From the NCBI GenBank assembly GCA_016182965.1, contig JACPFM010000026.1, forward strand, positions 30,190 through 94,189: DNA of 64,000 nucleotides, given 5' to 3'. The translations under genes and the position numbers were made by a program. Positions 13,917 to 38,959 of the stretch are shown here, piece by piece (within the stretch, counting starts at the first letter, position 1; the number at the start of each line of letters is the position of its first letter). Origin of the DNA: Deltaproteobacteria bacterium (GTDB taxonomy: Bacteria; Myxococcota_A; Polyangia; Polyangiales; JADJMO01). The notes beneath the pieces are model-generated. The model did not search any database. It saw only the letters and a list, made by a program, of their open reading frames with translations, and was not told where the DNA came from.

Positions 13917-14041
13917 GCCAGGCAAGCCGAGCAACAACGTTGCCAGGAGCGTGAAACCTCGATTCCTCGTGCATTCCACGTGAGCCGTCCCCCGCCCGGT
14001 TCAGTTTCTTGACGCCGCGTTCAGATTTTTGATCTACCGGT

Positions 14042-16881: not shown

Positions 16882-17101
16882 GGCCAATCCGTTGGTAGTG
16901 GCCGCCATCCCTTCACGGGGCTGCCGCTATTGAAAGCGAAGAGCTCCGCGCGCGGAATATCGACGTAAACGACGTCATCGACGTCAGGCTCGATGAGCAG
17001 ACAGAGGTTACGCTACCAGCGCTCGCGCGGCGGGCAATCAACTACCGACGTGGGCCGAGGCTATTGAGGGCGCTTTGACGTAGGGCCTGCTCGTCGGCAC
17101 G

Positions 17102-18073
17102 TCACAGCATCCGCTCCAGTGACGCCGGCGTCCTCGGGTCGACCGCGACAGGTTCCTGCTCGAGCCACAGACCGCGGCTCGCGAGCTCCCGCACGAGAGC
17201 CGGCGCTTCGCCGAGATCGAGGTCCTCGGGCCATATCCCCGGCAGCCCCTTCGCCTCAACGAGCTCAGTCCAGAACTCCGGCACGAACCACAGCAGGTCG
17301 GAACGGAGCGCCCGGAGATGCCGGAGGATGCGTACGCCGTTGGGGTCGAGGTCGCCGAAGTGGACCAGGGGCACATGGACCACACGCTCGAGAAGTCGAG
17401 CGACCGTTGCCGTGTCCCATCCAGGCACGTGCACCAGCAGCCAGCCATCGACGGCGCGTAGATCGCAGAACGCGCCGAGGTTCTCGACGAGCAGCGCCGC
17501 GCGGATCGTTCCTTCGAGAGCGAGGCCTGCGCTGAGGGCACGTTCTGGGATCGACACCTCACCGAGGACAGCCGCAACTGCTGCCAGGTCGACTCTCCCC
17601 TGTGGCGTGATCGCGACCAGTCCTTGCGGCGGTCGGAGGCGCACCGAACCGTCGTGCGTGGCCTCAGCGTCGCCGAGCGCGGCCAGGCGCCGATCCGTGA
17701 GCGTCGCCTTCGAGTGCGGCGCGACGAGTGCGGCCGCGGTTCGCCGGTTGAGCTGGTCTGGAAGCTGCGGCAGCCCCTCGGCGCGCTGCGCGTCTCCGAG
17801 CTCGCTCCAGCCGTCGGGGGTGGGCGCGAGCCCGCGCGCCGTCAGCGCTGCGAGCACCTCGCCCCACTCCGGCCAGACACGCCCGAGCAGCGCGACAAGC
17901 TCGTGTCGCCGTTCTTCGACAAGGCCGACCTCGTCACGACGCCCCGTGCGTCGTGTCCAAGGTAGTTCGTCGAGGGCATCCCAGGCAGACGCTTGCGCAC
18001 GTCGTCGCTTGAGCGAGCCGCGAACGAGCAGCTCCAAGAGGGCGAGACGGGCCGCCTCGGATCGCCAGTTCAC
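17102..18073 (-). CDS. jetD: Wadjet JetD (Toprim-domain nuclease subunit)
   Basis: Toprim-like LLVENLGAF and HFGDLDPNGVRILRHL motifs. GTGA overlap with the jetC stop. Confidence 0.8.
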   Translation of the reverse strand: MNWRSEAARLALLELLVRGSLKRRRAQASAWDALDELPWTRRTGRRDEVGLVEERRHELVALLGRVWPEWGEVLAALTARGLAPTPDGWSELGDAQRAEGLPQLPDQLNRRTAAALVAPHSKATLTDRRLAALGDAEATHDGSVRLRPPQGLVAITPQGRVDLAAVAAVLGEVSIPERALSAGLALEGTIRAALLVENLGAFCDLRAVDGWLLVHVPGWDTATVARLLERVVHVPLVHFGDLDPNGVRILRHLRALRSDLLWFVPEFWTELVEAKGLPGIWPEDLDLGEAPALVRELASRGLWLEQEPVAVDPRTPASLERML

Positions 18074-22491: not shown

Positions 22492-23174
22492 GGCGTCGGC
22501 TCCTCATCGAGGCTCGGATCCTCGTCGGCCGCCTGTTCGCCGTCGTCGAGGACGACTTCGCCGACGCGTACGAGCCGCTCGAGCGCGACGCTCCGGTCGC
22601 CGAGACCGCGCACCGGCTCCGCGAAGCGCATCAGCGCGGGGCGAAGACGCAGGCGCGTGTCATCGAGGACGTCGACGAAGCCCAGGTCGGCGAGGCGGCG
22701 CAGGGCGTCGCCGACCTTCGTCCGCACGGCCTCCGCTGCGATGCGCTCATCGTACTTGCCCCTGCGCGCGCGTCGCGGGTCGAGGGTACGCACCAAGACG
22801 TCGGTGCCGAGCAGAGCCGACAGGCGTTGGAGGAGCGCCTCTCGCCCGACGATGCCGCCGTGCTGGAGCGTCGCCGGATCGAGGTAGAGCAGCGCGAGAG
22901 TCTGCCCGACCAGCATCTCGCCGGCCGAAAGCTGGCGTCGCCCGAGCCGGTCACCCGACGGCAACAGGTAGAAGTACCCGTCACTCTGCTGGATCAGCTC
23001 GCAGCCGAAACGCCGGTAGAACGCCTCGAGCAGCGCCTGAGCGTCGACGAGGTACTCGTACATCGTGCCATCGTCGCGTCCGATGTGTCGCCCACGCCGG
23101 AGCGCGAGGTCGACCTCCGGGTAGTGCTCGTCATCGAGCGCTTCCTCGAGCGTGTGAAAGGACGTGGCGCTCAA
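22488..23174 (-). CDS. jetB: Wadjet JetB (DUF4194-like subunit)
   Basis: Size, position and acidic C-terminus fit JetB/MksE. TTG 23174 overlaps the jetA stop (TTGA). The track ATG is 23237. Confidence 0.7.
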   Translation of the reverse strand: MSATSFHTLEEALDDEHYPEVDLALRRGRHIGRDDGTMYEYLVDAQALLEAFYRRFGCELIQQSDGYFYLLPSGDRLGRRQLSAGEMLVGQTLALLYLDPATLQHGGIVGREALLQRLSALLGTDVLVRTLDPRRARRGKYDERIAAEAVRTKVGDALRRLADLGFVDVLDDTRLRLRPALMRFAEPVRGLGDRSVALERLVRVGEVVLDDGEQAADEDPSLDEEPTP

Positions 23175-24571
23175 GGCGTATCCCTCCCATCGACCGTCCA
23201 ATCCTCGACCTCGAGCCGCGAAAGCACGGGTGCCCAAGGACGCTCATGCTCGCCATGAACACGGGCAAGGCGACCGACAGCGTCGGCGACGCGGCCGGCT
23301 GCGGCGTAGTGCAGCGCCTCTGGAAGTTTGGGCAGCACGCGCGAAGACACGTCCGCGAGGGTCGATGCACCTTCATCGATGGCCTGCGCGACCAGCGCCT
23401 CGATGTCGGCGTGAACGTTCTCGGGCTCGACCCACTCGGGATCGGCTTCGCGCTCCGTGCGCGGCCTCGCTACCGGCGGACGCTCGACGCGTGCCTCGAG
23501 CGCACGCAACAGCCGAATCGACGGCGCGTGCGCGACGAGCAGGAAGAACGGGGAAGTCGGCCATGCGGCGGCCTGATCACGCAACCGTTGGCTGAGCGCG
23601 CGGTCGGGGTCGAGCCGCACGACGTCGCGCAGGTACCGGTGGACGTACTGGTAGTACTCCGACCACGCCTGCTGCCGCGCGCTACCCCACGCCGCAATCC
23701 GATCGACGTGCTCGATGACGCGCTGGACGGTCTCCTCGGCTTCGCGGTTTTCCGCCGCCGTGGCGAGCCCCTGGATCTCGAGCAGGAGCGCGACGAACAG
23801 GTGCGTGTCGCGCAGGAGGATTTCGTTCAGCTCACTGAGCGTGCTCGTCGTCGTGTCCAGCAGCAGCTGGCAGCGGTCGACGGCACTGAACCAGTCCGAC
23901 TGGAGGAGCTTGGCGATCTCTGCCTGCACTTCCTCCTGCTGCGCATCGAGCCCGCGCTGCCGGCGCTCGATCCCGGAGACCAGCTCGGAGACCGTGACCC
24001 GCAGTGGTCCAGACACCTTGCTCTTCCACGCATCCGTGTCCGTGGCCTTTTTCGCGGCCGCGAGCACCTCCGCGAGCTGCGCGCTCAACGTGCCCGTCAG
24101 TAGGGTCAGGCTCTCACGGGTCAGGGCCTCGTCCGTCAGGAAGTACTGGACGACAGCCGCCGCGAGTGTCGTGAGCGCGTAGTCGCCCGCGCGCACGATG
24201 CCGGCCCCATCGACGCGCGCGAGCATGCGCTGCTCGCGAAGCCGCTGGATGGCGTGCGTCGCCCGCTTGCGCGGGTTCTCTGCACCGGGCTCCACGACGT
24301 CGCAGACCTGCTCGAACATGTCGATGAGCACGTCCTCCTCGAAGGAGGCCAACGCCGCCTTGTCGGCGCGCAGGTACAGTCCCGCAAGGAAGCAGAGATC
24401 GACCGTCTTGAGGTCGAGGTTCACCTGGTCGCGTGCGAGCGAGGCGATGACGCGGTTCGGTTCGTTGGAGGGCGGCGCGGGGGTCACGAGGCTCCTCCCG
24501 TCGCCGCTACCGTTGGGCAGCTCACGCGGTACCTTCTCCCTGCGGGATGAAGCCACGCCGCCCCTGTTCAT
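23171..24571 (-). CDS. jetA: Wadjet JetA (DUF3375-like kleisin-type subunit)
   Basis: First gene of the four-gene coupled operon, and its size (440-466 aa) fits JetA/MksB. The alternative GTG 24487 would remove the 50-nt overlap with lmuB. Confidence 0.7.
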   Translation of the reverse strand: MNRGGVASSRREKVPRELPNGSGDGRSLVTPAPPSNEPNRVIASLARDQVNLDLKTVDLCFLAGLYLRADKAALASFEEDVLIDMFEQVCDVVEPGAENPRKRATHAIQRLREQRMLARVDGAGIVRAGDYALTTLAAAVVQYFLTDEALTRESLTLLTGTLSAQLAEVLAAAKKATDTDAWKSKVSGPLRVTVSELVSGIERRQRGLDAQQEEVQAEIAKLLQSDWFSAVDRCQLLLDTTTSTLSELNEILLRDTHLFVALLLEIQGLATAAENREAEETVQRVIEHVDRIAAWGSARQQAWSEYYQYVHRYLRDVVRLDPDRALSQRLRDQAAAWPTSPFFLLVAHAPSIRLLRALEARVERPPVARPRTEREADPEWVEPENVHADIEALVAQAIDEGASTLADVSSRVLPKLPEALHYAAAGRVADAVGRLARVHGEHERPWAPVLSRLEVEDWTVDGRDTP

Positions 24572-26372
24572 TCCCGGTGAACAGCTCGACCTTCACGCCA
24601 TCGAGCGTCCCGTCACCGGGAAGCTGGTGGCTGTTCTCGATGATGATGACCTGCGCGTCGATGAAGGCTGCTTTCACGCTCTCCCAAAAGTGCTTCTTGA
24701 TGTCCTGCGGAAACGTCGACTCCCCAGCGTCCGGCTCCTCGTAGACGAGCAGCGGCGAGTCGATCACAACGAAGTTCGGGAAGGGACGCTCGTCCTCGAT
24801 GCAGAGGCGAAGGAGCGCGAGGTTGAACGCCGCCCGTGTGATCGCCCGTACGCCCTTGCCGTGGCTCTTCCGCGCGCGGCCCGAGATCACCACGTCCTGG
24901 TCGTTCTCGCTGAACGAGACGCGATCGAGGTCGGGGAAGTGCCACGCCTTCAGGAGCGCTTCGACCTCGCGGCTGAACGGGTCGGCCTGCGCGGTGCTCA
25001 CGGCTGCGCCAGCGACGTCCGTCTTCTGCTTCTTCTTCGGCTTGTTCGCCTCCTCGAGCAGCTCTTCGAGTTCCTGAATCCGCTCGAGGTGCTCGATCGC
25101 CTTGCGGCAACGCTCCGCGCGCACGCGAAGCTCGTCGACCTTCTTGGATGCGACGTCGACGAGCTGCTCCAACAGCCCCTTCAGCTCCGACGAGATCGCA
25201 TCGAGCTCGGCTTGGCGAGTGTCGCGGGTAGCCTGGAGCTGCTCGATTTCGGCGGCGTTGGCGGCTCGCGTGGTCTGAAGGTCCTGGAGCAGCTTCGAGG
25301 TCTTGGCCGCCTCGGCTTTGCACGCCTGTGAGACGTCCGCCGGTGCCGGGCTCGCCTTCGGATGTTCGTGATGCTGGTGTTCGGCGAGCGCGCCACACAT
25401 CGGGCACCGCTCCTCCTTGAGCTGGTCGAGCCGAACCCCGGCCTCGGCGATCGCCTCCAGCCGTCGCAGGTCGGACTCGTACTGCAGCTCCAGCAAGTCG
25501 AACCGCGTCTGCAGCTCCGACAGAACCGCGAGCTTCGACTCGACCGCCTTCAGCGCCGTCCACGCCGTGCTGCGCTTCGTTTGCAGGGGCACCACGCTCG
25601 CCTGCGCGGCGTTGCGCTCAACGAGAGCCGTCTGAATCGAAGCTTCGATTCGGGTCAGGCGGTCGCGCTCCTCGGCGAGCGAGCTCACCTCGCCAAGCTC
25701 GGCGAGGCGTTCCCGCGTCGCCTTCAGCAGGCTCTCTAGCAGTTCGACCTTGCCAGCCTGGCGCCCCTTCGCGACCTTCGGATTTTCCTTCGCGATGATC
25801 GAGGAGTCGTCGGTGCCCGTGAGCAGGAGGCGAAACACGCCGCTCTCCACGGTCTTCGACGTGAACTGCCCACTGAGAACCGGCGAGTCCTCCTTGATGA
25901 CCGTCTCCTCGTCGATGATGACGAGCCGGGCGATGTCGCGGAAGCTGAGCGGCCGCGTCTTGCCCTGTTCGTTGGTGCGAACCTTCTTCGTACCCAGTCC
26001 CGACAGGTCGAGGAGGAACTGCGAGACGGTGTCCTCCTTGCCCCCTTGGTGCTTCGCCGCGAGCACGCGGTCGGGCTGCCCGTCGGTCTTGCAGAGCACC
26101 TCGCCGCCACGGAGGCTCCGCTCCAGCGAGTAGACGCGCCTGTCGCTGTTGGCCTCGATGTCGATGACGACGGAGCTGTAGCCCTCCGCTTCGGGGATCT
26201 CCTTCGGCGCGGCGCCGCCGCCGAGCGCGTAGTCGAGGCACTGAGCGATGAAGCTCTTGCCCGAATCGGAGGGGCCCGCGATGACGTTCAGTCCGCGCGT
26301 GAACGTGACCTCGGCCGGCGCTTTCCCCGGTCCGATGAGCGCGAGACGCCGAAGGGCGAAGCCGAACTTCAT
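24522..26372 (-). CDS. lmuB: Lamassu LmuB / ABC-3C SMC-like ATPase
   Basis: N-terminus NVIAGPSDSGKSFIAQCLDYALGG (Walker A, DUF3732-like), central coiled coil with a CPMCG zinc-hook-like motif, C-terminal Walker B FVVIDSPLL. ATGA overlap with lmuC. Confidence 0.75.
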   Translation of the reverse strand: MKFGFALRRLALIGPGKAPAEVTFTRGLNVIAGPSDSGKSFIAQCLDYALGGGAAPKEIPEAEGYSSVVIDIEANSDRRVYSLERSLRGGEVLCKTDGQPDRVLAAKHQGGKEDTVSQFLLDLSGLGTKKVRTNEQGKTRPLSFRDIARLVIIDEETVIKEDSPVLSGQFTSKTVESGVFRLLLTGTDDSSIIAKENPKVAKGRQAGKVELLESLLKATRERLAELGEVSSLAEERDRLTRIEASIQTALVERNAAQASVVPLQTKRSTAWTALKAVESKLAVLSELQTRFDLLELQYESDLRRLEAIAEAGVRLDQLKEERCPMCGALAEHQHHEHPKASPAPADVSQACKAEAAKTSKLLQDLQTTRAANAAEIEQLQATRDTRQAELDAISSELKGLLEQLVDVASKKVDELRVRAERCRKAIEHLERIQELEELLEEANKPKKKQKTDVAGAAVSTAQADPFSREVEALLKAWHFPDLDRVSFSENDQDVVISGRARKSHGKGVRAITRAAFNLALLRLCIEDERPFPNFVVIDSPLLVYEEPDAGESTFPQDIKKHFWESVKAAFIDAQVIIIENSHQLPGDGTLDGVKVELFTGNEQGRRGFIPQGEGTA

Positions 26373-26878
26373 GACGCCTCCTCGGTCCAGAGAACGGACT
26401 CCATCGAGAACTCAGCGCCCCACGTGCCGATGCGCTCGCGGACCATCGAATCGAGCTCTGTGTCGTCGAGGGCGCCGAAGCTGTCGACCACCCAGTCCGC
26501 GCGATCACGCAGGCCCGCGAGGTACTCGGTGCTGAGCGTGTCGAGGAAGTCAGCGGACTTGTCGGTTGCGGCGAAGAAGATGCCGCCGTCCTTGTAGACG
26601 CGCTCGATGAGCCCACGGCTCTCGTAGAGCGTGAGCCCGTCTTGAATCACGCCGCGACGAACGAGGATCTCGCCGCCGCGATGCGGAGTTCTCGGATGCA
26701 GCCCCTCGGGTCCACCCTCGATGTCGTCGGAGTGGACGAGGAAGTAGTCGAACACCACGAGCCGCTGCAGCGCGTACGCAGCGGGGAACGCCGTGGTCAG
26801 CACGCAGAGAGCACGCAGGCCGATCTCCACGGGCCCGTTGAACGGCGAGACGAAGTGGGTGGGCGTCTCGGTCGTCAT
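26369..26878 (-). CDS. lmuC: Lamassu LmuC / ABC-3C middle component
   Basis: A ~169-aa helical protein wedged between the effector and the ATPase, with ATGA overlaps on both sides. Confidence 0.6.
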   Translation of the reverse strand: MTTETPTHFVSPFNGPVEIGLRALCVLTTAFPAAYALQRLVVFDYFLVHSDDIEGGPEGLHPRTPHRGGEILVRRGVIQDGLTLYESRGLIERVYKDGGIFFAATDKSADFLDTLSTEYLAGLRDRADWVVDSFGALDDTELDSMVRERIGTWGAEFSMESVLWTEEAS

Positions 26879-27960
26879 TTGACCCACCGGACCTTTCCGT
26901 CGTTCGCGAGCTGGTGGCAGATGCCTCCACGGTCACGGGTATAGATGCGCGTGGTGAGCGGGTTGCTCGTGAGCTGCAGCGCGCGGGCCGTCTTCACCAC
27001 CGCGAGGACACGCTGATAGCCGTCGGCATGGGCACCACGCACGTCGTCCTTGATGCCGGAGTGGACCTCGTCCTGCAGCTTCTCGAACTCGCCCTGAGGC
27101 AGCGTGTCGCGCGAGAAGGTTCTCAACCCCTCGGCGCTGTAGAACTCGACGCGCGCGTCATGGAAGTGCTCGCGGAGGTCGTCGCGGGCTGCGAGCCCCG
27201 CGTCGAGGTCCTTCACGTCTTGTTTGAGATGCTGCGCGTACGCGAGTCGAAGCTCGCCGACGAAGACCGCTTCGTTGGCGGCTGGAACGCTGGGAGGCGC
27301 GAGGGGGTCAGGGCGCAGCGGAAGCCCGCCTCCGAACCGCGCCGCGTACCAGCGCGTCTTGGCGTGCCCTTCGATGATGCGGAGGAGCGGCTTGGTCTGG
27401 AAGATGGAGAAGTCGAGGCTCGCGATGTGTGCCTTCATCGCGGCGTCGCACTCGACGACCTCGGTCTTCGTGATCTCGGTCCGGCACGCCTTGTCCCAGT
27501 TGGCGAGGAGCCCGTCGCGTAGCGCGTGAGGCTTCTTCAAGAGGTTCGAGAGCGTCGGTCCAACGCCTTGCGGCGCGACGAAGAAGTAGGCTCGCGGGTA
27601 CGAGTACTCGCTCTTCAGCGTGTAGTAGGCGAGCTTGCCCAGCTCGATCCACACGTCGCCGGGTGCAAGCGCCTTCTGGTAGTGCTTGCACTGGTAGTTG
27701 TCCCAAGCGCCCTTGCCGCCCTTCACCGTCGCGATGACGTCGCGGCCCATGTCGCCCGCACCACCGCACCGCTCGACCAGCTCGTACTCGTCGCGCAGCG
27801 AGTCCACCCACTCCTGAACGAAGCGCTCCCACTGGTCGGCGCTGAAGAGCCTGACCCGGTCCTCGGGATGCACCGGAAGCCCCGACGCCACGACGTCCGC
27901 AGCCAGGCCAGGCGGCGGCGCCGGAGGCTGAGGAATCGCAACGGGCGGCGGGACCTTCAT
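26875..27960 (-). CDS. lmuA: Lamassu LmuA effector: Mrr-like PD-(D/E)xK nuclease N-domain plus ABC-3C C-terminal domain
   Basis: FVQEWVDSL...GGAGDMGRDVIA...WDNYQCKHY resembles the Mrr catalytic core (D...D...QxK). The long helical C-terminal domain ends in GGICHQLANDGKVRWVK. Start is ATG 27960. Confidence 0.65.
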   Translation of the reverse strand: MKVPPPVAIPQPPAPPPGLAADVVASGLPVHPEDRVRLFSADQWERFVQEWVDSLRDEYELVERCGGAGDMGRDVIATVKGGKGAWDNYQCKHYQKALAPGDVWIELGKLAYYTLKSEYSYPRAYFFVAPQGVGPTLSNLLKKPHALRDGLLANWDKACRTEITKTEVVECDAAMKAHIASLDFSIFQTKPLLRIIEGHAKTRWYAARFGGGLPLRPDPLAPPSVPAANEAVFVGELRLAYAQHLKQDVKDLDAGLAARDDLREHFHDARVEFYSAEGLRTFSRDTLPQGEFEKLQDEVHSGIKDDVRGAHADGYQRVLAVVKTARALQLTSNPLTTRIYTRDRGGICHQLANDGKVRWVK

Positions 27961-28079
27961 CACGCCGTGACCTCCGAGTCGTCGATGTGCAGCACCTCGA
28001 TGAAGCGGGCGATGTGCTTGGTGGTCTCCTCGTCGTCGGGCGTGAGGAGGATCGGCTTGAACTTCTTGTCCTTGCTCAC
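27960..28079 (-). CDS. possible 39-aa leader ORF coupled to lmuA
   Basis: GTG 28079 gives SKDKKFKPILLTPDDEETTKHIARFIEVLHIDDSEVTA. Its TGA overlaps the lmuA ATG (ATGA). No clear RBS. Confidence 0.3.
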   Translation of the reverse strand: MSKDKKFKPILLTPDDEETTKHIARFIEVLHIDDSEVTA

Positions 28080-28497
28080 CGGCGACAGACGAGCCCCGGC
28101 TTCCGTCCGGTCCCACCGCCCGCGAGAGGGAAGAAGATGCGCTCTTGGATGGCCTTCGTGTCCTGGTACTCGTCGACGAAAGAACCGCACGCAAGAGCGG
28201 CTCGTGCAGCCGATGAAGACCACGCGAGGAGACTACTAGAATGTCGGCCGGATCCGAACGACGAACCACCGCGCCGACAGGTAACGACTGGTCCGTCACC
28301 AGTCGTCGCACCCGCGACATGGGCCCGGCCGCGCACCTCCGGGTAGCTTGCCCGACGGACTCAGCTCAGGTGACGTCGGATGGTCGTTCTTGATCGAGAC
28401 GACGAGGCCGACGCCGCGCGCTGGAACCTCTGCGATCGGCTCTGTTGCTGGTCGGCCCCTCGGGGCAGGCGATCGCCGCTTGCTCTACACTCCCCCC

Positions 28498-29826
28498 GTG
28501 CTCGACAACGAGACCGGCCAGGAACCCGCCCTCTCGCCCCCCGCGCCCGCCGACCTCCCCGGTCTCCTCATCCTCTGGTCCGGCACCCAGCCCACCTGCG
28601 TCGCCCGCCCCCTCCACCGCCGCCTCACGATAGGCCGCAGCAGCGACGCCGACGTCTGCCTCGGCGACGACACCCTCGTCTCGCGCATGCACGCCGACGT
28701 CTTCGCCGCCGCCGGCGGCTACGTCGTCACCGATCGCGACAGCCGGCACGGCACCTTCGTCAACGGCGCGCGCATCGAGCGACAGGTCTCCGTCGACCCC
28801 GGCGCCGTGCTGCGCGTCGGCCGCACCGTCATCCTCCTCGGACCGATCGCCGAAGACGAGCCGCGCCCCATCGAGGTCGTCGGCCACTACGTCGTCAGCG
28901 CCTACCAGCGCAGGCTGCGGTCCGACGTGGGTACCGCCGCGCGGCTGGGGGCCAACCTCCTCATCCTCGGCGACACCGGCACCGGCAAGGAGGATCTCGC
29001 GCGGCACTACCACGCGTCCGGCCCCCGCGCCTCCGGCCCCTTCGTCACCCACTCGGCGGCCACGCTGCAGGCGTCGATCGCCGAGGCCGAGCTGTTCGGG
29101 ACGCGCCGCGGCGGCTTCACCGGCGCCGTCGATCGCGAGGGGCTGCTCGCGAGCGCGAGCGGCGGCACGCTCTTCCTCGACGAGATCGGCGATCTCTCGC
29201 TCGAGGTGCAGAGCAAGCTGCTGCGCGCGTTCCAGGAGCGCGAGGTCGTGGCGATCGGCGGCGGAAAGACCAAGAAGGTCGACTTCCTCCTGTGCACCGC
29301 GACCTCGGTCGATGTCGACGCCGCGTTCGCGGCCGGGAGGTTTCGCGAGGATCTCCTCCACCGCATCGCCGGCGTCACCGTCCGGGTCGACTCGCTCGAT
29401 CGGCGCCGCGACGAGATCCCCTTCCTCCTCGCGACGACCCCCGAGCTCGCGAGCGCCGACGTCACCCTCTCCGCGCCGTTCGTCGAGGCGTGCATGCTCC
29501 GCCGCTGGCCGGGGAACGTCCGCGGCCTTCGCAACGCGCTCCGACAGGCGATCGTGAACGCCGCGCGCGAGGCCGAGCGGAGGGCAGCGCCGGTCGAGAA
29601 GCTCGAGCTGCAGCCCTCGCATCTCGAAATCCCGGTCGGAGCGAGCGCTCCGCCACCCGCTCCGAGAGCGGCGACGTCGGCGGCACGCGACGAGGAAGAG
29701 CGCGCGCTGCTGCTCGATGCGTTGCGCCGCGCCGACGACAACGGCGTCGAGGCGGCCGCGCGGCTCGGCATGCCGAAGTCGACGTTCTACCGGAAGCTCG
29801 AGAAGCACGGCATCAGGCTGCGCTGA
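28498..29826 (+). CDS. sigma-54-dependent transcriptional activator with N-terminal FHA domain
   Basis: FHA (RLTIGRSSDADVCLGDDTLVSRMHA...DSRHGTFVNG), AAA+ Walker A (LILGDTGTGKE), GAFTGA-type loop (RGGFTGA), Walker B (LFLDEIGD), Fis-type HTH (MPKSTFYRKLEKHGI). GC3 rises sharply after GTG 28498. The track start 28348 is TTG. Confidence 0.85.
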   Translation: MLDNETGQEPALSPPAPADLPGLLILWSGTQPTCVARPLHRRLTIGRSSDADVCLGDDTLVSRMHADVFAAAGGYVVTDRDSRHGTFVNGARIERQVSVDPGAVLRVGRTVILLGPIAEDEPRPIEVVGHYVVSAYQRRLRSDVGTAARLGANLLILGDTGTGKEDLARHYHASGPRASGPFVTHSAATLQASIAEAELFGTRRGGFTGAVDREGLLASASGGTLFLDEIGDLSLEVQSKLLRAFQEREVVAIGGGKTKKVDFLLCTATSVDVDAAFAAGRFREDLLHRIAGVTVRVDSLDRRRDEIPFLLATTPELASADVTLSAPFVEACMLRRWPGNVRGLRNALRQAIVNAAREAERRAAPVEKLELQPSHLEIPVGASAPPPAPRAATSAARDEEERALLLDALRRADDNGVEAAARLGMPKSTFYRKLEKHGIRLR

Positions 29827-29846
29827 TCGCGACGGCCCCCTGCCCG

Positions 29847-29894
29847 TTCCGGACCCTTCCCGGAATTCCCGGACGTTCCCGGAATTTCCCGGAA
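29847..29894 (+). promoter_or_regulatory. tandem array of TTCCCGGAA sites (candidate enhancer/UAS)
   Basis: TTCCCGGAA/C at 29857, 29866, 29876 and 29886 (9-10 bp phasing), plus TTCCGGA at 29847. The motif is a near-palindrome. It lies 65-110 bp upstream of the sigma-54 promoter. Confidence 0.6.
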
Positions 29895-29958
29895 TGCCCC
29901 GCGCCCCGACGGCCTCCGATCCACGAGGATTTCCGACGAATCCCGGCTCGGTGCCCGT

Positions 29959-29974
29959 TGGCACGTGCCGCGCA
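29959..29974 (+). promoter_or_regulatory. sigma-54 (-24/-12) promoter
   Basis: TGGCACG-tgcc-gcGCA, compared with the consensus TGGCACG-N4-TTGCW. The GG and GC are correctly spaced. It lies 85 nt upstream of ATG 30059. Confidence 0.65.
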
Positions 29975-30058
29975 ATGGCGCCGCGCACGACCGACGCGGC
30001 GCACGCGGCGCAGCGCGCGGAGGCGATCCATCACGCGCCGAAGAAGGAACTTCGTGTC

Positions 30059-30871
30059 ATGGCCACCAAGAAGATCAAGTCCGTTCCCGTCCAGTCCGAG
30101 CTCTCGCAGGAGGTGCTCGACGGCACCCCGATGCGCGCGCTCGTGTTCCTCCGCGGCTCGCGCGGCAAATCGATCCGCGCGATCCTCCAGCGCGCCGGCT
30201 ACACGCCCGAAGATCGCGCCGAGGGCTGGCGCCTCCTCAAGCGCTCGTGCGGCTTCTTCGAGGACGACGACGTGCTCATCCAGGACGAGGCCGCCGAGGC
30301 GGTCAAGCAGCTCGACGCGTGGGACGAGGGCGGGTTCCGCCGCGCGCGCGCCGCGCTCGCGCGCCTGCACCCCGAGCAGTGCGACTTCGTGTTCCGCGGC
30401 GGCCTCAAGCCGACGCAGGGCCTCGCCGCGGTGATGGGCGTGATGACCTTCCTCGATCGCCTCGACGAGCTCGAAAAATCGCCCGAGCGCAAGTCGACCC
30501 GCAAGGCCGATCAAGCGGCGCTCGCCACGCTCGCCAAGCGCGGCATCGACGACGAGGAGCGCAAGCGCCTGCGCACGCTGGTGAAGCTGATCGAGGCGAC
30601 CCCCGAGCTGCTCGATGACGGCGACGAGACCGACGACGAGAAGCAGGCCGCGCTCGTGCAGCTGCGCGCGTGGTTCGAGGACTGGAGCGCCACCGCGCGC
30701 ACGGTGGTCACCCGCCGCGATCACCTGATCCGGCTCGGCCTCGCCAAGCGCAAGAGCGGCGGCAAGAGCGAGGAGGTCGAGGAGGACGAGCCGGCGGGCG
30801 ACGACAGCCCGACGCCGCGCGTCGCCCCCACCAACGGCAGCGCCAGGCCCGAGGTGACGCCGGCGAGCTGA
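30059..30871 (+). CDS. hypothetical 270-aa helical protein with acidic C-terminus (sigma-54 target gene)
   Basis: ATG 30059 is preceded by AAGGA. GC3-rich ORF. No motif recognised. Confidence 0.7.
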   Translation: MATKKIKSVPVQSELSQEVLDGTPMRALVFLRGSRGKSIRAILQRAGYTPEDRAEGWRLLKRSCGFFEDDDVLIQDEAAEAVKQLDAWDEGGFRRARAALARLHPEQCDFVFRGGLKPTQGLAAVMGVMTFLDRLDELEKSPERKSTRKADQAALATLAKRGIDDEERKRLRTLVKLIEATPELLDDGDETDDEKQAALVQLRAWFEDWSATARTVVTRRDHLIRLGLAKRKSGGKSEEVEEDEPAGDDSPTPRVAPTNGSARPEVTPAS

Positions 30872-30937
30872 TCTGACGCGCCGAACGCGGGACGTACGCG
30901 CGCCCGTAGGTCCCGCCGCGCGCGCCACCGTCAGTCA

Positions 30938-31258
30938 GACCCTGCGACGCCGTCCCGAGACCCACCGCCGCGGCCCCGAGACCCTCCGACGCCATCCCGG
31001 AGCTTCCGACCCGGGTCGCGACACCGATCGACGCGGGTAACCACGCGATCGGACTGGCCAATCAGGGTTGCAGTCCGGACGGCCAGACCTCCCGGATCGC
31101 GACGAACGCACACCCGATCGCGACGAACGGCGCCAAGGCCGGTAAGCGAGCCTCTTTCGCGGCGTCGCGAGGCTCCGGGATCGCGTCGGGAGGCTTCCCG
31201 GATCCGCCGGCAAGCCTCCCGGATCGCGTCGGAAGGTCCCCGGCCGCGTCGGAAGCAG
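30938..31258 (+). repeat. repeat-rich intergenic region
   Basis: Imperfect ~21-nt direct repeats: GACCCTGCGACGCCGTCCCGAG at 30938 and GACCCTCCGACGCCATCCCGGAG at 30980. There are also about six units of the type CCTCCCGGATCGCG(A/T)CGGAAG between 31089 and 31258. Confidence 0.6.
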
Positions 31259-31284
31259 AAACACCGAGAAAAGGAGGGGTCTCC

Positions 31285-32100
31285 ATGGACCGCCCGCGCT
31301 ACCACGTGCTCCCCGGCACGTTCGTCGCCCAAGGCTACGCGCCCGACGGCGACTCGATCCGCTTCGCCCCCGATCGTCTCGCCGCGCTCGACGAGCTCCC
31401 CGGCACCCTGCGCCTGCGCGTGGCGAAGGACACCTCGGTGCAGCTCCGTCTCGAGGGCATCGACGCGCCCGAGCTCCACTACCTCGCGCACGCCCAACGC
31501 CTCGGCGACGCCGCGCGCGACGCGTTGCTCCACGCGCTCGCCATCGACGACGCGCACGTCGAGCACGACTTCGTCACCCGCGCGCGCTACGTGCGCGGGA
31601 CCATCCTGACCCGCAGCATCGATCCGAACGGCCGCGTGATCGCGTACGCGTTCCGGCACGTGGCGCCGCTCCACGTGCGATCGTCGGTGAACGCCGAGAT
31701 GCTCCGCGCGGGGATGGCCTATCCCCTCGCCTACGACACCCAGCCCGCCGAGGACCGCCGCGCGTTCGCCGCCATCGCACGCCTCGCGCGCATGAAGAAG
31801 CTCGGCGTGTGGGCGATCGATCGCACGCCGGCGTTCCCGCTCGCGACCGAGCGCTCGATCGGTCCGCACGGCGCGCTGATCTTCCCGAAGCTGTTCCGCC
31901 GCTGCCTCGCGTACGTGAGCGAGCGGCTCTCGGGCTTCCGCGGCGACTTCCGCGCGTGGCTCGAGGGCGAGGCGGGCGCGGACAACGACGTGGTGATCGT
32001 GCGCGGCAGGTTGATGCGGTTGAGCGCGCTGGTGGAGGAGGTCGGGCGCGAGGTCCGGACGCGGGTGGATGGGGCGCGGGTGGTGTTCGTGGCGCGGTGA
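31285..32100 (+). CDS. staphylococcal-nuclease (SNase/thermonuclease) fold protein without signal peptide
   Basis: PDGDSIRF and VQLRLEGIDAPE match the SNase Ca-binding/catalytic signature, and DPNGRVIAYAF...VNAEMLRAGMA matches the distal part. A strong RBS (AAAGGAGGGG) precedes the ATG. The ~100-aa C-terminal extension has no recognised family. Confidence 0.8.
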   Translation: MDRPRYHVLPGTFVAQGYAPDGDSIRFAPDRLAALDELPGTLRLRVAKDTSVQLRLEGIDAPELHYLAHAQRLGDAARDALLHALAIDDAHVEHDFVTRARYVRGTILTRSIDPNGRVIAYAFRHVAPLHVRSSVNAEMLRAGMAYPLAYDTQPAEDRRAFAAIARLARMKKLGVWAIDRTPAFPLATERSIGPHGALIFPKLFRRCLAYVSERLSGFRGDFRAWLEGEAGADNDVVIVRGRLMRLSALVEEVGREVRTRVDGARVVFVAR

Positions 32101-32217
32101 GGCGGTCCCGCGGCACGTCGCGCACGCAGCGCCGCACAGGCGCTCATCGAGAGCCGTGCACGCCAGCCTCGCCTACGTGAACGCCGACCTGCCTGCTGGT
32201 GTGTCACGCCGTGCGCG

Positions 32218-34200
32218 TCACGGCACGCTCGCCTTTGCCGACATCGAGGGCGCTGGCGTCGGCGGAGGATGACCAGCGAGCATCGCGAGCCCATCGCGCG
32301 CGTGAGCTTCGAAGCGCTGCTCGGGGATCTCCTGCCCGAAGCCCGCCTTCACGTCCGCGCGCACGACCGCTTCCAACTCGTCGGGGCGAAGGTCGAGAAC
32401 CCATCGATACAGCCGATCGGCCACATCGCGACGCGTTCCGCGGGAGAACATGTCGCCGTTCTGATTGAGCGCCAGCGCGTACTCCAGATACAGCGCAGCG
32501 GTGTCGGGATCGAGGGTCGCCATGCGTGGGAGCACGCGCTTCATCGCGCGCTCGAAGTACTGCAGCGTGAAGTCGGCGCGGCTGCGTACGTCGAGCGAGG
32601 TGCCGAAGGGCAAGAGCTCCATCAGAAGGCCGTGCGGGAGCGCGCCGTATGCCTTCCCTCCACCAATCGGCGAGAGGTAGGCCTCTACCGGCACCGATCG
32701 CGTTGCCATCACCTTGTGCCGCGCGGCGAACGCGTCACGCACCATGCGGGTGTACAGGGCCTGATCGGTGCCTGCACCGGGATACGGTGGCCATGGCTCG
32801 GCGGGGTAGCGGCGCTTCAGCTGCTCGACGTACCACGGGTGGATGTGACCTGGGCTGAGGACGACCACATCAGGTCGTCGTCCCTCGACGGCCTGCAGAT
32901 ACCAGAGCGCGTGAATGTTGGTATCGCCGTGCACGAGGAGCAACGCGCCAGGTGCTGCGGCCTCTAGCGTGTCCTCTGCATTACGCCGCGCGAGATCGTG
33001 CCGACGCAGGTCGTTCTCCCGAAAATTGACCAAGAGGAGCGCGACCGAGGTGGTGATCGCGAGAGGCGCAAGCCAGCGCCGCTTGCCCTCATCGTCGAGC
33101 CACGCGAGCGCGGAGTCGGTACCGACCGTGGCGAACAACGCGAGGACCCACGTCGATGGGAGGAAGAACACCTCGATGTCGAGGACGTGGTAGCCAATGC
33201 AGACCGCTACGTTCGCACCGAGCGTCCACGCGAGCACTCGTCCCCCGACCCGCCGCGGTCGCTCGTCGCTGCGAAGCCACGAGAACGCGCCCACGACGCC
33301 GAGGAGCGCCGCGAGCCCGAGCTCCTTCGGAAGCGCCAAGAGGTGACGCTCGAGACGGCCCACGCCCTGGTCGAACGTTCCCTCCGTCCAGTGCCGCACG
33401 TACGGTGCGCCGCGCACGACGGTGAAGAACCGATCGAGCGTCTCGGGGTCGCCGATGTCGATCGCGGGTTGCGTGCGACTTCGGAGTGGCAGAAGGACGT
33501 ACGGGAGGAGCGCCACCAGGGCCCCGGCGCCGAGGGGTATCGCCCGTCTGCGGTCCAAGCCGCCTACTGCCCACGCGATCCCGAGCATCGTCGGTGCGTA
33601 CACGACGTTGAGTGGACGGTGCCCCATCCAGAGACCAAGCGCGATACCTGTGACGAGCGTCGCCCTCCACGGCCCGGCAGCAGCGAGAGCAGCATGCGCG
33701 ACGAGCATGGCGAGCAGGACGTCGAAGCCATAGACCTCGATGGCGACGCCCTGCGACCAGAAGGTGGCGCCGAAGGCGAGGGCGACCGCGCCAACGCTCG
33801 CACCGACACGACTCGCGCCGATGCGTCTCGCGAGCAGCCAGAACGCGGTAACCGCAGCCGATGCATATACAGCCGCCACGACATTGGCTGCGAAGGCGCG
33901 ATCACCGCGCACGAGCTTCATCAGCAGCCCGGTGACGAGGGTGAACGTCGGGTACCCCGGCGGATGGGGGATGCCGAACACCGCAGCGGCCGCCGCGAGC
34001 TCAGGCGAGTCTCCGACGTGGAACGTCCGGCACGCTGTGAATGTGTAGACGACGGCGCAGAGGGCTCCGATCGCACCGGCGACCAGCACGTCTCGCCGCT
34101 CGAGCGAGCGGGGCTCGAAGAGCCGCCGTGACTCCGCCGGCGGCGTCTCCGCGGCAGACGTCGTCTCGTCGCGCGGGATCCGCTTCTGGGGCGTCGTCAC
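32218..34200 (-). CDS. DUF2723-type polytopic membrane glycosyltransferase-like protein with C-terminal soluble domain
   Basis: The GDSPELAAAAAVFGIPHPPGYP motif is typical of DUF2723/PMT-like proteins, and there are many TM segments. The GTG 34200 start overlaps the upstream stop (GTGA). The upstream part of track ORF 32218-34875 is an out-of-frame reading of the RCC1 gene. Confidence 0.75.
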   Translation of the reverse strand: MTTPQKRIPRDETTSAAETPPAESRRLFEPRSLERRDVLVAGAIGALCAVVYTFTACRTFHVGDSPELAAAAAVFGIPHPPGYPTFTLVTGLLMKLVRGDRAFAANVVAAVYASAAVTAFWLLARRIGASRVGASVGAVALAFGATFWSQGVAIEVYGFDVLLAMLVAHAALAAAGPWRATLVTGIALGLWMGHRPLNVVYAPTMLGIAWAVGGLDRRRAIPLGAGALVALLPYVLLPLRSRTQPAIDIGDPETLDRFFTVVRGAPYVRHWTEGTFDQGVGRLERHLLALPKELGLAALLGVVGAFSWLRSDERPRRVGGRVLAWTLGANVAVCIGYHVLDIEVFFLPSTWVLALFATVGTDSALAWLDDEGKRRWLAPLAITTSVALLLVNFRENDLRRHDLARRNAEDTLEAAAPGALLLVHGDTNIHALWYLQAVEGRRPDVVVLSPGHIHPWYVEQLKRRYPAEPWPPYPGAGTDQALYTRMVRDAFAARHKVMATRSVPVEAYLSPIGGGKAYGALPHGLLMELLPFGTSLDVRSRADFTLQYFERAMKRVLPRMATLDPDTAALYLEYALALNQNGDMFSRGTRRDVADRLYRWVLDLRPDELEAVVRADVKAGFGQEIPEQRFEAHARDGLAMLAGHPPPTPAPSMSAKASVP

Positions 34201-37186: not shown

Positions 37187-38959
37187 TCAACCGCCGCAGC
37201 GTTTGAGACCCGCCACCGCCGCCGCCATCGTCGGGTCCTTCTCCAGGATTTGGCGATAGACCTCACGCGCTCCAGCCTTCTTCCCGCGTCGTTCGAGGAT
37301 CTGCGCGTGGAGCAGCTGCGCCTGCGTTCCACCGCCGCCAGCGACGGCCAGCCTCGCCTCCGCGTCCGCCGTTTCGAGATCGCCGGCATTGAGCGCGTCG
37401 ACCGCGCCCTGATAGTGACTGGTCGGCTTCGGCTTCGCCGGAGCGGCGATCGCGAGGGGCTTTCCGGACGCGGGCGGTTGAGCGGTCGGGGTCGTCGACG
37501 CACTCATCGCGGTCGACGGGACCGGCGCGGGCGCGGAAACGGCCATCGTCGCCCCGATGCTCGGCGCCGGTGGCGATGCCGAAACGAGGTGCGACGCGAC
37601 CGCGCTCGCCGCGGGCACCGCCGGCGCCCCACGATCGCCGCTGCGCACGACCAGCACCAGCGCGGCGATGCTCGCGAGCAGGACCGCGAGGCCGCCCATG
37701 GTCGCAGCGACGACGAGGAGCGGCCGGCTCGGCGCGATTGCCTTGCCCGGGACGGTATCCAACCCGGTGCTCTCGTCGTGGGTCCGCGTCGTCGCGCCGC
37801 CGGTCTCGACCGGCTGGGCGTCCGTCAATGCAACGAGCGCCTCGGTTCGCGCGGTCGGGTCGGCGCTCGCATGAATCACCGCCGTCTGTCGATCAGTCGA
37901 CGCCGATCCAAGCACGAGCGCATCGGCGCTGATCGGCCGGGTGCTAGCGGGGTCCGTGCCGGAGCTCGCCAGCGCCGTCGCGACGCGCACGTGCGCGGTC
38001 GGGAACGCCTCAGACGGGGGCGGCCCGTCGACTTTGACTGTCGGACGCGCGCGCTCCTGCACCGTGCCGTCGTCGGGTGGCGGCGGTGTGCTGCGGGGCG
38101 CGGAGATCGGGGCCACAGACTGCGCGCGTGTCGACTCGAGCACCGCGTGCACGGCGGTCTGCATCTCCCGAGCGGTCTGGAAACGTTCGGCCGGGTTCTT
38201 CCGCAATGCGCACGCAATCAGCTCCTCGAGCGCCGGCGGGAATGGGCGACCGCTCCGCTGAGCGAGCGTCGGCGGCGGGGTGTAGATGTGCTGCCGAAGC
38301 AGCTCCTGCGCGTTCGGAGCGTCGAACGCAGGATCGCCGGTGAGCATCTCGAACAGCACGAGCGCGACGGCGTACAGATCGGCCGCGAAGCTGACCGGTT
38401 GCCCCTTCGCCTGCTCGGGGCTCATGTACTTCGGCGTGCCGATCGCGACGCCATGGGCGGTGTTCGGGCCGGTGCCGGTGTCGATGATCGACTTGGAGAT
38501 CCCGAGATCGAGGATCTTCAAGCGACCGCGGGTCGTGAGGAAGAGGTTCGCGGGTTTGATGTCGCGATGGATCAGGTGCGCGTCGTGTGCGGCGGCAAGC
38601 CCATCGAGGAGCTGGAGCCCGAGGACCAGCGCCTGATCGAGACGCAACGCGCCGCGTTCACGCAGGGCCTGCAGCAGCGTGACGCCATCGACGTACTCCA
38701 TGACGAAGTACGTGCGCCCATCAAGCGTCTCGCCGAGGTCGACGATCGGCGCGAACGCGTCGTGATTGAGCTTCGCCCCCCGCTGCGCCTCGGCGATGAA
38801 CCGTCCGACGACGTCCTTGTTGGCGAGGAACTTCTGCTGGATCACCTTCATCACGAACGGCTTGCCGAGCCGCGTGTGCTCCACCAGCAGCACGACGCCA
38901 TGCGAGCCTTCGCCGAGGACGCGCACCGGCTTGTAGTTCAGGCCACGCAGGTCTTCCAT
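37187..38959 (-). CDS. Hanks-type Ser/Thr protein kinase, membrane-anchored, with C-terminal TPR-like region
   Basis: GEGSHGVV (P-loop), VMK, HRDIKPANL, DLG, TPKYMSPEQ. TM segment GGLAVLLASIAALVLVV. Start is ATG 38959. Confidence 0.85.
   Translation of the reverse strand: MEDLRGLNYKPVRVLGEGSHGVVLLVEHTRLGKPFVMKVIQQKFLANKDVVGRFIAEAQRGAKLNHDAFAPIVDLGETLDGRTYFVMEYVDGVTLLQALRERGALRLDQALVLGLQLLDGLAAAHDAHLIHRDIKPANLFLTTRGRLKILDLGISKSIIDTGTGPNTAHGVAIGTPKYMSPEQAKGQPVSFAADLYAVALVLFEMLTGDPAFDAPNAQELLRQHIYTPPPTLAQRSGRPFPPALEELIACALRKNPAERFQTAREMQTAVHAVLESTRAQSVAPISAPRSTPPPPDDGTVQERARPTVKVDGPPPSEAFPTAHVRVATALASSGTDPASTRPISADALVLGSASTDRQTAVIHASADPTARTEALVALTDAQPVETGGATTRTHDESTGLDTVPGKAIAPSRPLLVVAATMGGLAVLLASIAALVLVVRSGDRGAPAVPAASAVASHLVSASPPAPSIGATMAVSAPAPVPSTAMSASTTPTAQPPASGKPLAIAAPAKPKPTSHYQGAVDALNAGDLETADAEARLAVAGGGGTQAQLLHAQILERRGKKAGAREVYRQILEKDPTMAAAVAGLKRCGG

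Follow-up and report, generated by a model that had tools for sequence, protein, structure and literature searches.

A conserved activator-P270-nuclease module beside a Wadjet/Lamassu block, and the iteron-associated P270 family of Polyangia

A 64,000-nucleotide stretch of a Deltaproteobacteria bacterium genome (class Polyangia; assembly GCA_016182965.1, contig JACPFM010000026.1, positions 30,190 to 94,189), called here the window, carries three plus-strand genes directly after a block of two defence systems, Wadjet and Lamassu. They encode a sigma-54 enhancer-binding protein with a forkhead-associated (FHA) domain (the activator), a helical protein of 270 amino acids (aa) designated P270, and a nuclease with the staphylococcal nuclease (SNase) fold. 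The trio is best explained as a conserved, separately inherited regulatory module. The activator probably switches a sigma-54 promoter in front of P270, and the nuclease follows P270 after a spacer in which two arrays of 21-bp iterons face each other. Arrays of this period are strongly enriched near genes of the P270 family in general, including copies embedded in type I-C cas operons, which makes P270 the best candidate for an iteron-binding protein. Coordinates are collected in Table 1.

Recurrence of the trio

Contigs encoding the closest relatives of P270 and of the nuclease were compared, giving eight non-redundant loci including the window. All three genes are found together in the window, L074, L077, L079, L081 and L097, and thus in at least six non-syntenic contexts; in L073 and L096, P270 and the nuclease are accompanied by another gene, or by the contig end, at the activator's place. 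The flanks of the trio loci share no synteny, and homologues of the window genes come from Polyangia (Polyangium, Sorangium, Labilithrix, Minicystis, Byssovorax). Full-length orthologues of the activator from trio loci score 265-294 bits and are mutual best relatives, whereas other activators near P270 genes reach only 112-178 bits.

A preliminary description of the window had placed three such genes directly after the Wadjet/Lamassu block and proposed that they form a module. All three genes are confirmed, and their recurrence in related genomes agrees with that proposal. Its reading of the individual proteins and of the P270 promoter also holds. An enhancer-binding protein with FHA, AAA+ (GAFTGA-type loop) and Fis-type helix-turn-helix (HTH) domains is recovered both by Pfam and by inspection of the loop; the helical 270-aa protein lacking a known motif finds no match in Pfam, PHROGs, PADLOC or fold searches, nor any housekeeping family; the well-spaced -24/-12 promoter with tandem sites in front of it is conserved in the eight loci; and the SNase-fold protein keeps its DGD...RLxGIDAPE signature and has no export signal. 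As had been anticipated, PADLOC assigns neither P270 nor the nuclease to a known system (no family at E <= 0.01).

The activator and the P270 promoter

The GTG start of the activator agrees with the starts of its homologues. Pfam detects FHA (PF00498, 8.3e-15), Sigma54_activat (PF00158, 8.5e-47) and HTH_8 (2.4e-6), and the Walker A/B motifs GDTGTGKE and LFLDEIGD can be read in the sequence together with the loop GGFTGA. This loop is a variant of the sigma-54-contacting GAFTGA in which F and T are retained; the orthologous loops read GAFTGA, GAYTGA or GAFTDA. The FHA signature residues IGR, SRMH and SRHGTFVNG are present. The PADLOC model PDLC01995 matches the AAA+ and HTH parts (residues 188-489 of a 492-aa open reading frame) at 2.8e-65. 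Among NCBIfam equivalogs the activator stays below all cut-offs, NorR being the best (201 bits vs 476) and RtcR scoring 193 bits vs 650. With its AAA+ domain, loop, Fis-type HTH and candidate sites near a -24/-12 promoter, the protein has the features predicted for a sigma-54 enhancer-binding protein.

The -24/-12 element in front of P270, TGGCACGTGCCGCGCA, is the sole match to TGGCAC-N7-GCW in the window, where 0.87 matches are expected by chance, and it ranks second by a rough home-made -24/-12 score across the 64 kb. Because about one pattern match is expected by chance, the case for this promoter rests on its conservation: in the eight loci the element lies 96-102 nt before the P270 ATG, with GG and GC invariant. 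The best rough score in the window belongs to TGGCAACGTTGTTGCT (13930-13945, minus strand), at the 5' end of an unannotated 312-aa gene (12999-13937, minus strand).

A tandem array of half-palindromes sits 58-114 nt upstream of the -24 element in the window, and a short-unit array with a period of ~10 bp is found upstream of the promoter in every trio locus. Its unit differs by lineage and changes together with the recognition helix in the HTH of the neighbouring activator. In the window the helix PKSTFYRKLEKH is paired with the unit TTCCCGGAA and in L079 SKSTLAYRLDKY with GTTCGAAC, while in L074, L077, L081 and L097 a helix of the form SR(A/S)TF(Y/F)ARKKK is paired with GAGTCCGA/GGACTC. Since the position of the site, the GG and GC dinucleotides and the co-change of array and helix hold across loci, control of the P270 promoter by the activator, the first step of the proposed cascade, is accepted here as probable with good confidence. 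The promoter and the leader that follows it have a mean column identity of 71% over the eight loci. The leader was also considered as an RNA fold, which the covariation term (+0.09) does not support.

Activator and P270 appear to be separate transcription units, because other genes are inserted between them in L073, L079, L096 and L097. P270 in turn is likely to be a unit apart from the nuclease because a hairpin follows it in seven of the eight loci, with stems of 11-13 bp, unrelated sequences and z-scores of -2 to -5 (z = -2.0 for 30869-30935 in the window).

The iteron-bearing spacer

In the window the nuclease starts 413 nt downstream of P270. Across the eight loci the spacer measures 260-455 nt, and in L083, which holds a more distant P270-nuclease pair, 484 nt. 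Its order is fixed: two to four reversed copies of a 21-nt unit, a central box, and three to six forward copies that stop ~30 nt ahead of a strong ribosome-binding site. The iteron arrays are homologous to those of the window in all trio loci; the spacers are too divergent between loci to align. In the window, the inverted-repeat pairs I1-I3 of the left array have 71-82% complementarity to 31169-31253, and the right array stops 30 nt before the nuclease ATG. The central box AATCAGGGTTGCAGTCCGGACGG is a possible promoter or operator for the nuclease; neither it nor the rest of the spacer holds a -24/-12 element with the right spacing.

The preliminary description had inferred a tightly silenced nuclease module. 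For the nuclease itself, sigma-54 control is not evident, because only P270 has such a promoter and the hairpin and the iteron spacer precede the nuclease. The best sigma-54 score in the spacer (30872-31284) is 16 of 21.4, and a TGGCC...TTGCA box at ~31054 was rejected as a -24/-12 site, its spacing being 2 nt too long. Scans of 28000-32400 for sigma-70 promoters and U-tract terminators gave nothing informative, and Rfam gave no known RNA family there at E <= 1. The heptamer TCCCGGA occurs in both spacers of the window (six of its seven matches in the window) and was first read as the activator binding both; it is probably a coincidence, because elsewhere the upstream sites change and the iteron unit does not.

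A structured RNA was also considered for the spacer. Both strands fold better than shuffled sequences (z = -4.5 and -3.3), as would any inverted DNA repeat, and protein-binding sites are favoured over RNA because of the 21-nt periodicity and because the arrays at solo P270 genes run in one direction.

The nuclease

Pfam SNase (PF00565) matches the nuclease at 2.7e-9 (37.9 bits vs a cut-off of 21). The structural model is of high confidence (mean predicted local distance difference test score, pLDDT, 94.7), and Foldseek aligns its first ~175 residues to S. aureus nuclease with E ~4e-7 and a target-normalised template-modelling (TM) score of 0.75-0.83. Within a family of 30 relatives, DGDS, RLEGIDAPE and the GR of NGRVIAY are conserved. 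By motif inspection against the reference residues D21, R35, D40, E43 and R87 of the S. aureus enzyme, the catalytic positions were assigned to D23, R55, D60 and E63; D60 is invariant and the other three nearly so among the 30 members, and R117 aligns to R87 in hhalign. No hydrophobic N-terminus was found (maximum hydropathy 0.97 for 19-residue stretches, and 0.89 for 12-residue stretches within the first 40 residues), and none of the three trio proteins has a hydrophobic segment. The nuclease thus looks catalytically competent and cytoplasmic as judged from its sequence.

The C-terminal domain matches nothing in Pfam and no PDB sequence, yet it is conserved family-wide (PKLFRR, W225, D235). 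The combination of nuclease and C-terminal domain defines a widespread family, with members annotated as Candidatus Saccharimonadia and Cyanobacteria, which the preliminary description had not seen. Some members (P0144, P0148, P0152, P0163, P0197) begin with a hydrophobic anchor and have a low-complexity linker, so that exported or anchored forms exist in the family alongside cytoplasmic ones. Against the plasmid and phage collections the nuclease gave only three weak matches, all on plasmids.

P270 and its family

The AlphaFold2 model of P270 is all-helical (pLDDT 83.6), and the protein is mildly acidic overall, with an isoelectric point (pI) of 5.6. A profile search of the PDB gave nothing significant, and Foldseek gave no fold match (best E 0.44 in the PDB and 0.15 in BFVD). 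No catalytic motif and no similarity to transposases, Rep, ParR or ParB was detected. No Pfam model, PspA_IM30 included, matches any of 27 family members, and PspA/Vipp1 structures are absent from the best 50 Foldseek matches listed for P270. The NCBIfam model NF052641, 'PQLLE family protein', gives 19 bits for P270 vs a cut-off of 80 and weak matches for 25 of 27 relatives (best E 3.1e-8), so that any relation would be at most distant; this family name was not mentioned in the literature searched.

A profile search indicates that the P270 family comprises at least 2,015 clusters at 50% identity, nearly all of them single-domain proteins of 230-300 aa. It has no Pfam model and has been seen so far in Polyangia only. 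Most members have neither an activator nor a nuclease nearby, a wider family that had escaped the preliminary description. In 72 genomic loci the gene neighbours vary widely and several copies occur per genome, for example four in SMAG_U2200. Plasmid and phage collections gave no P270 match, and a metagenome scan for close relatives yielded 11 loci, all distant. Tandem pairs of diverged paralogues are seen in L004, L005, L007, L008, L011, L012, L041, L044 and L089. The second copy is ~30-38% identical to the query, and a long 20-21-bp array lies upstream of the first copy in most pairs (none by Tandem Repeats Finder, TRF, near L007, L044 and L089). The 599-aa protein P0264 aligns to the P270 profile twice, possibly as a fusion of such a pair.

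Iterons accompany the family as a whole. In non-coding DNA lying no more than 600 nt from a P270-family gene, arrays with a period of 21 occur at 0.91 per kb vs 0.086 elsewhere, the background being the other non-coding DNA of the same loci; this corresponds to 50 arrays observed vs 4.7 expected (10.6-fold, Poisson p = 2e-33). The core GAAGCTTC is 16-fold enriched near P270 genes, whereas control GC-rich motifs are not. Arrays differ between paralogous P270 loci of one genome, and no gene other than P270 is shared by all array-bearing loci. Because it is the sole constant partner of the arrays, P270 is the best candidate for the protein that binds them.

A second subfamily (L031, L035, L039, L043, L094) has a sigma-54-like promoter of its own, TGGCGCGC-N5-GTGCGA, and an adjacent activator in L031, L039 and L043. 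Because this subfamily has promoter and activator and no nuclease, P270 can apparently be the sole output of an activator. Upstream of several solo P270 genes (L003, L007, L011, L012, L013, L014, L017, L088), a conserved T-run followed by (C)GCAACC is seen ~60-90 nt before the ATG; it may be a different type of promoter or operator.

P270 in cas operons

When Pfam families are counted over the 136 genes directly adjoining P270 genes, sigma-54 activators (11) and SNase (8) lead the list; Cas8c (2), Cas7 (2), AAA_15/AAA_21 ATPases (3), Uma2 (2) and HNH are also represented. In two diverged type I-C operons, L052 and L090, P270 lies between cas8c and cas7 and overlaps the cas8c stop codon by 4 nt (GTGA or ATGA), and a spacer of ~300 nt with repeats separates it from cas7. 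The order P270, array, effector therefore recurs, with SNase as the effector in the trio loci and cas7 in L052 and L090. In L090 the stretch between P270 and cas7 again has the core CGCGTCGGAAGG, and its repeats include CCGCGTCGGAAGG, which forms the core of the window iteron. In L024 (183-4889), P270 is followed by a 102-aa gene, an extracytoplasmic function (ECF) sigma factor and Cas3 (HD and helicase), which looks like another cas-linked P270 locus.

Genomic surroundings

Window G+C is ~70%. The Lamassu genes score 1e-116 (LmuA), 2e-50 (LmuC) and 2e-167 (LmuB) in PADLOC, and the Wadjet system consists of MukF/MukE/MukB-like genes and a JetD_C gene. Each system is complete without the trio, and the trio is found elsewhere without either, showing that its genes are not part of Lamassu or Wadjet. 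The longest open reading frame of LmuA has 481 aa and an Arg/Ser-rich N-terminus of ~148 aa outside the LmuA model (27874-28497); its true start is probably near 27873-27960, which would leave a divergent spacer of 540-620 bp before the activator gene. A tRNA-Gln and a tRNA-Glu gene lie at 2058-2247, ~15 kb upstream of the RhuM/Wadjet/Lamassu block, and could be the integration site of the island.

The trio is compositionally distinct from both flanks, because its G+C content at third codon positions (GC3, 0.93-0.96) exceeds that of the Wadjet/Lamassu genes (0.78-0.87) and of the downstream genes (0.81-0.86; range considered, 15817-39000). The downstream genes include housekeeping-like ones, for a TMEM260-like glycosyltransferase and an RCC1-repeat protein. 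Ser/Thr protein kinase genes are found 5 kb downstream of the window trio (37187-38959, minus strand) and 1.5 kb downstream of the trio in L074 (11677-13689, minus strand). Genomes of this kind encode very many FHA-type activators and Ser/Thr kinases.

The neighbours in the other loci differ from case to case. L073 has a type I restriction R subunit (HsdR), L074 has MTaX1, a DNA methylase and REase-ARP, L077 has transposases, L079 has a YhcG nuclease between activator and P270, and L097 has weak DUF4258 and DUF2283 matches. In L083, a DEAD/Helicase_C gene starts 3 nt past the nuclease stop, and a DUF6088/AbiEii pair lies just downstream.

Table 1. Features of the module and of related loci. 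Positions refer to the window unless a locus is named.
Feature	Position	Strand	Basis or remark
RhuM-family protein	15817-16887	-	Pfam 1e-109; PADLOC candidate system PDC-S05 2.8e-142; immediately upstream of JetD-like gene
Wadjet and Lamassu defence systems	17102-28320	-	
Activator, 442 aa, GTG start	28498-29826	+	Pfam domains, orthologue alignment
Activator, FHA domain	~28627-28821	+	Pfam
Activator, AAA+ sigma-54 interaction domain	~28909-29382	+	Pfam
Activator, Fis-type HTH	~29689-29805	+	Pfam
Tandem array, five TTCC(C)GGA(A) half-palindromes, 10-bp period	29845-29901		TRF; proposed activator sites
Sigma-54 (-24/-12) promoter TGGCACGTGCCGCGCA	29959-29974	+	GG-N10-GC spacing correct
Conserved P270 leader	29975-30058	+	Invariant CGCG.CG, GG.GCAGCG and CGCGCC blocks; AAGGA ribosome-binding site
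P270, 270 aa, all-helical	30059-30871	+	Start backed by homologues; basic N-terminal and central segments, acidic tail
GC-rich hairpin just after P270 stop	30887-30916	+	Terminator- or attenuator-like, no U-tract
Left iteron array, 3.6 copies of 21-nt unit	30937-31010	-	TRF; reverse-complement to right array
Central conserved box AATCAGGGTTGCAGTCCGGACGG	31060-31082	+	Between iteron arrays; similar boxes in L073, L074, L096, L097 by inspection
Right iterons	31090-31255	+	Two 17-19-nt copies, 31090-31129; 4.5 tandem 21-nt copies of CTCCCGGATCGCGTCGGAAGG, 31162-31255
Nuclease ribosome-binding site AAGGAGG	31271-31277	+	Strong
SNase-fold nuclease, 271 aa	31285-32100	+	SNase part residues 1-178; C-terminal domain ~93 aa, 31819-32097
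P270 between cas8c and cas7, L052	3980-8000		Diverged type I-C operon
P270 between cas8c and cas7, L090	1636-5408		Diverged type I-C operon
More distant P270-nuclease pair, L083	6001-8345		Myxococcales metagenome-assembled genome; AbiEii; DEAD-box helicase after nuclease

Proposed mechanism and alternative explanations

These features can be arranged into a layered control over a cytoplasmic non-specific nuclease, a tentative reading whose chances as a whole we put slightly short of even. The FHA-AAA+-HTH activator would bind the 10-bp-period array and, presumably when triggered by a phospho-threonine partner of a Ser/Thr kinase, open the sigma-54 promoter that drives P270 and that would otherwise be off. 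Transcription from this promoter would mostly end at the hairpin after P270. P270 would be a DNA-associated protein whose cognate sites are the 21-bp iterons, two helical turns apart, and would act at the two inverted arrays that bracket the nuclease control region to set nuclease expression; for this step the evidence, drawn from the placement and enrichment of the arrays, leaves us evenly divided. The output might be a burst of intracellular SNase-type cleavage of DNA or RNA. An inducible defence or suicide response would be the likeliest use, and is proposed because the modules keep company with defence and mobile genes. The same combination of P270 and iterons would gate other effectors as well, for example cas7 and the downstream genes of type I-C operons. 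Phospho-threonine gating by a kinase is suggested because the activator carries an FHA domain, the one feature that points to it.

Several observations weigh against this arrangement. TRF arrays are present near only 44 of 89 P270 loci, and their enrichment is an association, not binding. P270 has no recognisable DNA-binding domain, and its acidic pI and tail would equally suit an inhibitor of the nuclease. In the second P270 subfamily, neither a TRF array beside P270 nor an SNase was found, and the nuclease family also occurs without P270 (L084). Scans for sigma-54 and sigma-70 promoters identified none for the nuclease, which may be read by read-through from the sigma-54 promoter. With regard to the kinase, the SxNGT-type FHA loop is missing in three orthologues (L077, L081, L097), and the module has no cognate kinase that accompanies it consistently. 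As to a defence role, the GC3 of the trio equals that of the highest-GC3 genes of the window, and the argument for such a role is one of neighbourhood; we consider it doubtful, and abortive infection in particular would be pure conjecture. Similar doubt attaches to the broadest version, in which P270 would represent a new class of iteron-binding gatekeepers in Polyangia, each copy recognising its own 21-bp array and controlling an effector against nucleic acids downstream (the SNase in the trio, cas7-cas4-cas1 in type I-C operons), and the trio an inducible defence that releases the nuclease through kinase, FHA domain and sigma-54.

An ordinary stress or developmental regulon, serving nucleic-acid turnover in starvation or programmed lysis like many myxobacterial sigma-54 circuits and merely lying beside a defence island, seems rather unlikely, even though several findings are compatible with it: the composition of the trio just mentioned, the housekeeping-like genes downstream of it in the window, and the many non-defence genes among the 136 P270 neighbours (DinB, TenA, ankyrin, response regulators). 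FHA-type activators form a known myxobacterial class tied to development, which also fits. However, the trio is non-syntenic, defence or mobile genes occur in at least six of eight trio or P270-nuclease contexts (a raw count, with none clearly in L081, L096 and L097), and type I-C cas operons contain relatives of P270. Alternatively, P270 might be a partner or inhibitor of the nuclease, comparable to an antitoxin or immunity protein: basal nuclease would be held in check, the activator would adjust the supply of P270, and the iterons would be operators for another factor. P270 is always upstream of the nuclease and co-inherited with it, and it adjoins all seven nuclease relatives of at least 47% identity with contigs read (P0123, P0125, P0127, P0128, P0131, P0133, P0134). 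In L030, L041 and L044, P270 is followed by the nuclease after gaps of only 14-32 nt. The contrast between an acidic P270 and a basic nuclease (pI 9.8) and the tandem P270 paralogues, which resemble immunity-gene arrays, point the same way. Yet a nuclease is near P270 in only 3 of the 72 loci of the unbiased genome scan and the nuclease family lives without P270 elsewhere; 270 aa is large for an antitoxin, a default-off promoter would be odd logic for an inhibitor, and neither the family-wide iteron association nor the presence of P270 in cas operons would be explained. We therefore judge the inhibitor model improbable.

The multiple copies of P270, its highly variable contexts, the direct and inverted sets of arrays and the insertion between cas8c and cas7 would also be expected of a selfish or maintenance element (centromere-like, iteron-replicon-like or a mobile cassette) on which nuclease and activator hitch-hike. 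This is very improbable, given a protein that has neither a catalytic motif nor a likeness to transposases or Rep and is absent from the plasmid and phage collections, and given the 4-nt overlap with the cas8c stop, a sign that the gene is built into host expression. Around P270, neither terminal repeats nor target duplications were noted, no systematic search for them having been made. Layered control of the nuclease by activator, P270 and iterons thus remains the reading adopted here, at the strength given above.

Significance and comparison with known systems

New here are the wiring conserved across loci, the placement of a cytoplasmic nuclease behind iterons, and the family that pairs P270 with iterons; FHA activators, sensor-AAA+-HTH proteins beside nucleic-acid stress or defence genes and the SNase fold are already known. 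Literature searches found nothing on the trio or on the P270-plus-iteron family, nor did they turn up a paper that connects enhancer-binding proteins or sigma-54 with anti-phage defence. If the proposed cascade is correct, it would link Ser/Thr-kinase/FHA signalling and all-or-none sigma-54 transcription to the control of a self-endangering nuclease. The comparison also gives a first functional handle on the large P270 family, and the 21-bp iterons, together with the type I-C subgroup, suggest that defence genes in large-genome myxobacteria have a layer of regulation yet to be explored.

The iterons recall plasmid Rep/iteron systems and ParR/parC, in which tandem 20-22-bp repeats on one helix face lie beside the gene of the presumed binder. 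Unlike these, P270 is chromosomal and multi-copy, has no replication or partition genes beside it, and its binding is presumed from sequence. Type II toxin-antitoxin pairs differ from the window pair, with its gap of 413 nt, its hairpin and a P270 of 270 aa, although in the distant pairs of L030, L041 and L044 the two genes lie close together. The SNase fold is a textbook one, and the classical enzymes are exported. The trio nuclease resembles staphylococcal nuclease or thermonuclease (PF00565, YncB-type) in fold (TM ~0.8) and in the positions of the catalytic and Ca2+-binding motifs; it differs in having no signal peptide, in its extra ~93-aa C-terminal domain and in the occurrence of its family in islands and mobile contexts. 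PspF-pspA is similar in that an activator stands beside a sigma-54-driven gene for an all-helical protein of ~220-270 aa. However, PspF lacks a sensor domain, which the window activator has, and an activator is missing near most P270 genes.

Myxobacteria have a known class of FHA-type activators (Jelsbak et al., 2005, cited in PMC12288465). The enhancer-binding proteins of this type in Myxococcus xanthus have the same FHA-AAA+-HTH architecture and belong to the same phylum; they are tied to fruiting-body development, and the likeness to the window activator is one of architecture. They are reportedly thought to couple Ser/Thr-kinase signalling to sigma-54 promoters, and we know of none in M. 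xanthus that controls a nuclease or a P270-type gene. The logic of the trio resembles in outline that of CARF-type activators such as RtcR (RtcR-rtcBA; the 'RtcR_PspF' CARF_AAA_HTH models in PADLOC), where a sensor, a sigma-54 AAA+ domain and a Fis-type HTH switch an adjacent operon for nucleic-acid stress or defence from off to on. In the window, the sensor is an FHA instead of a CARF domain, and the target is a helical protein instead of RtcB/RtcA.

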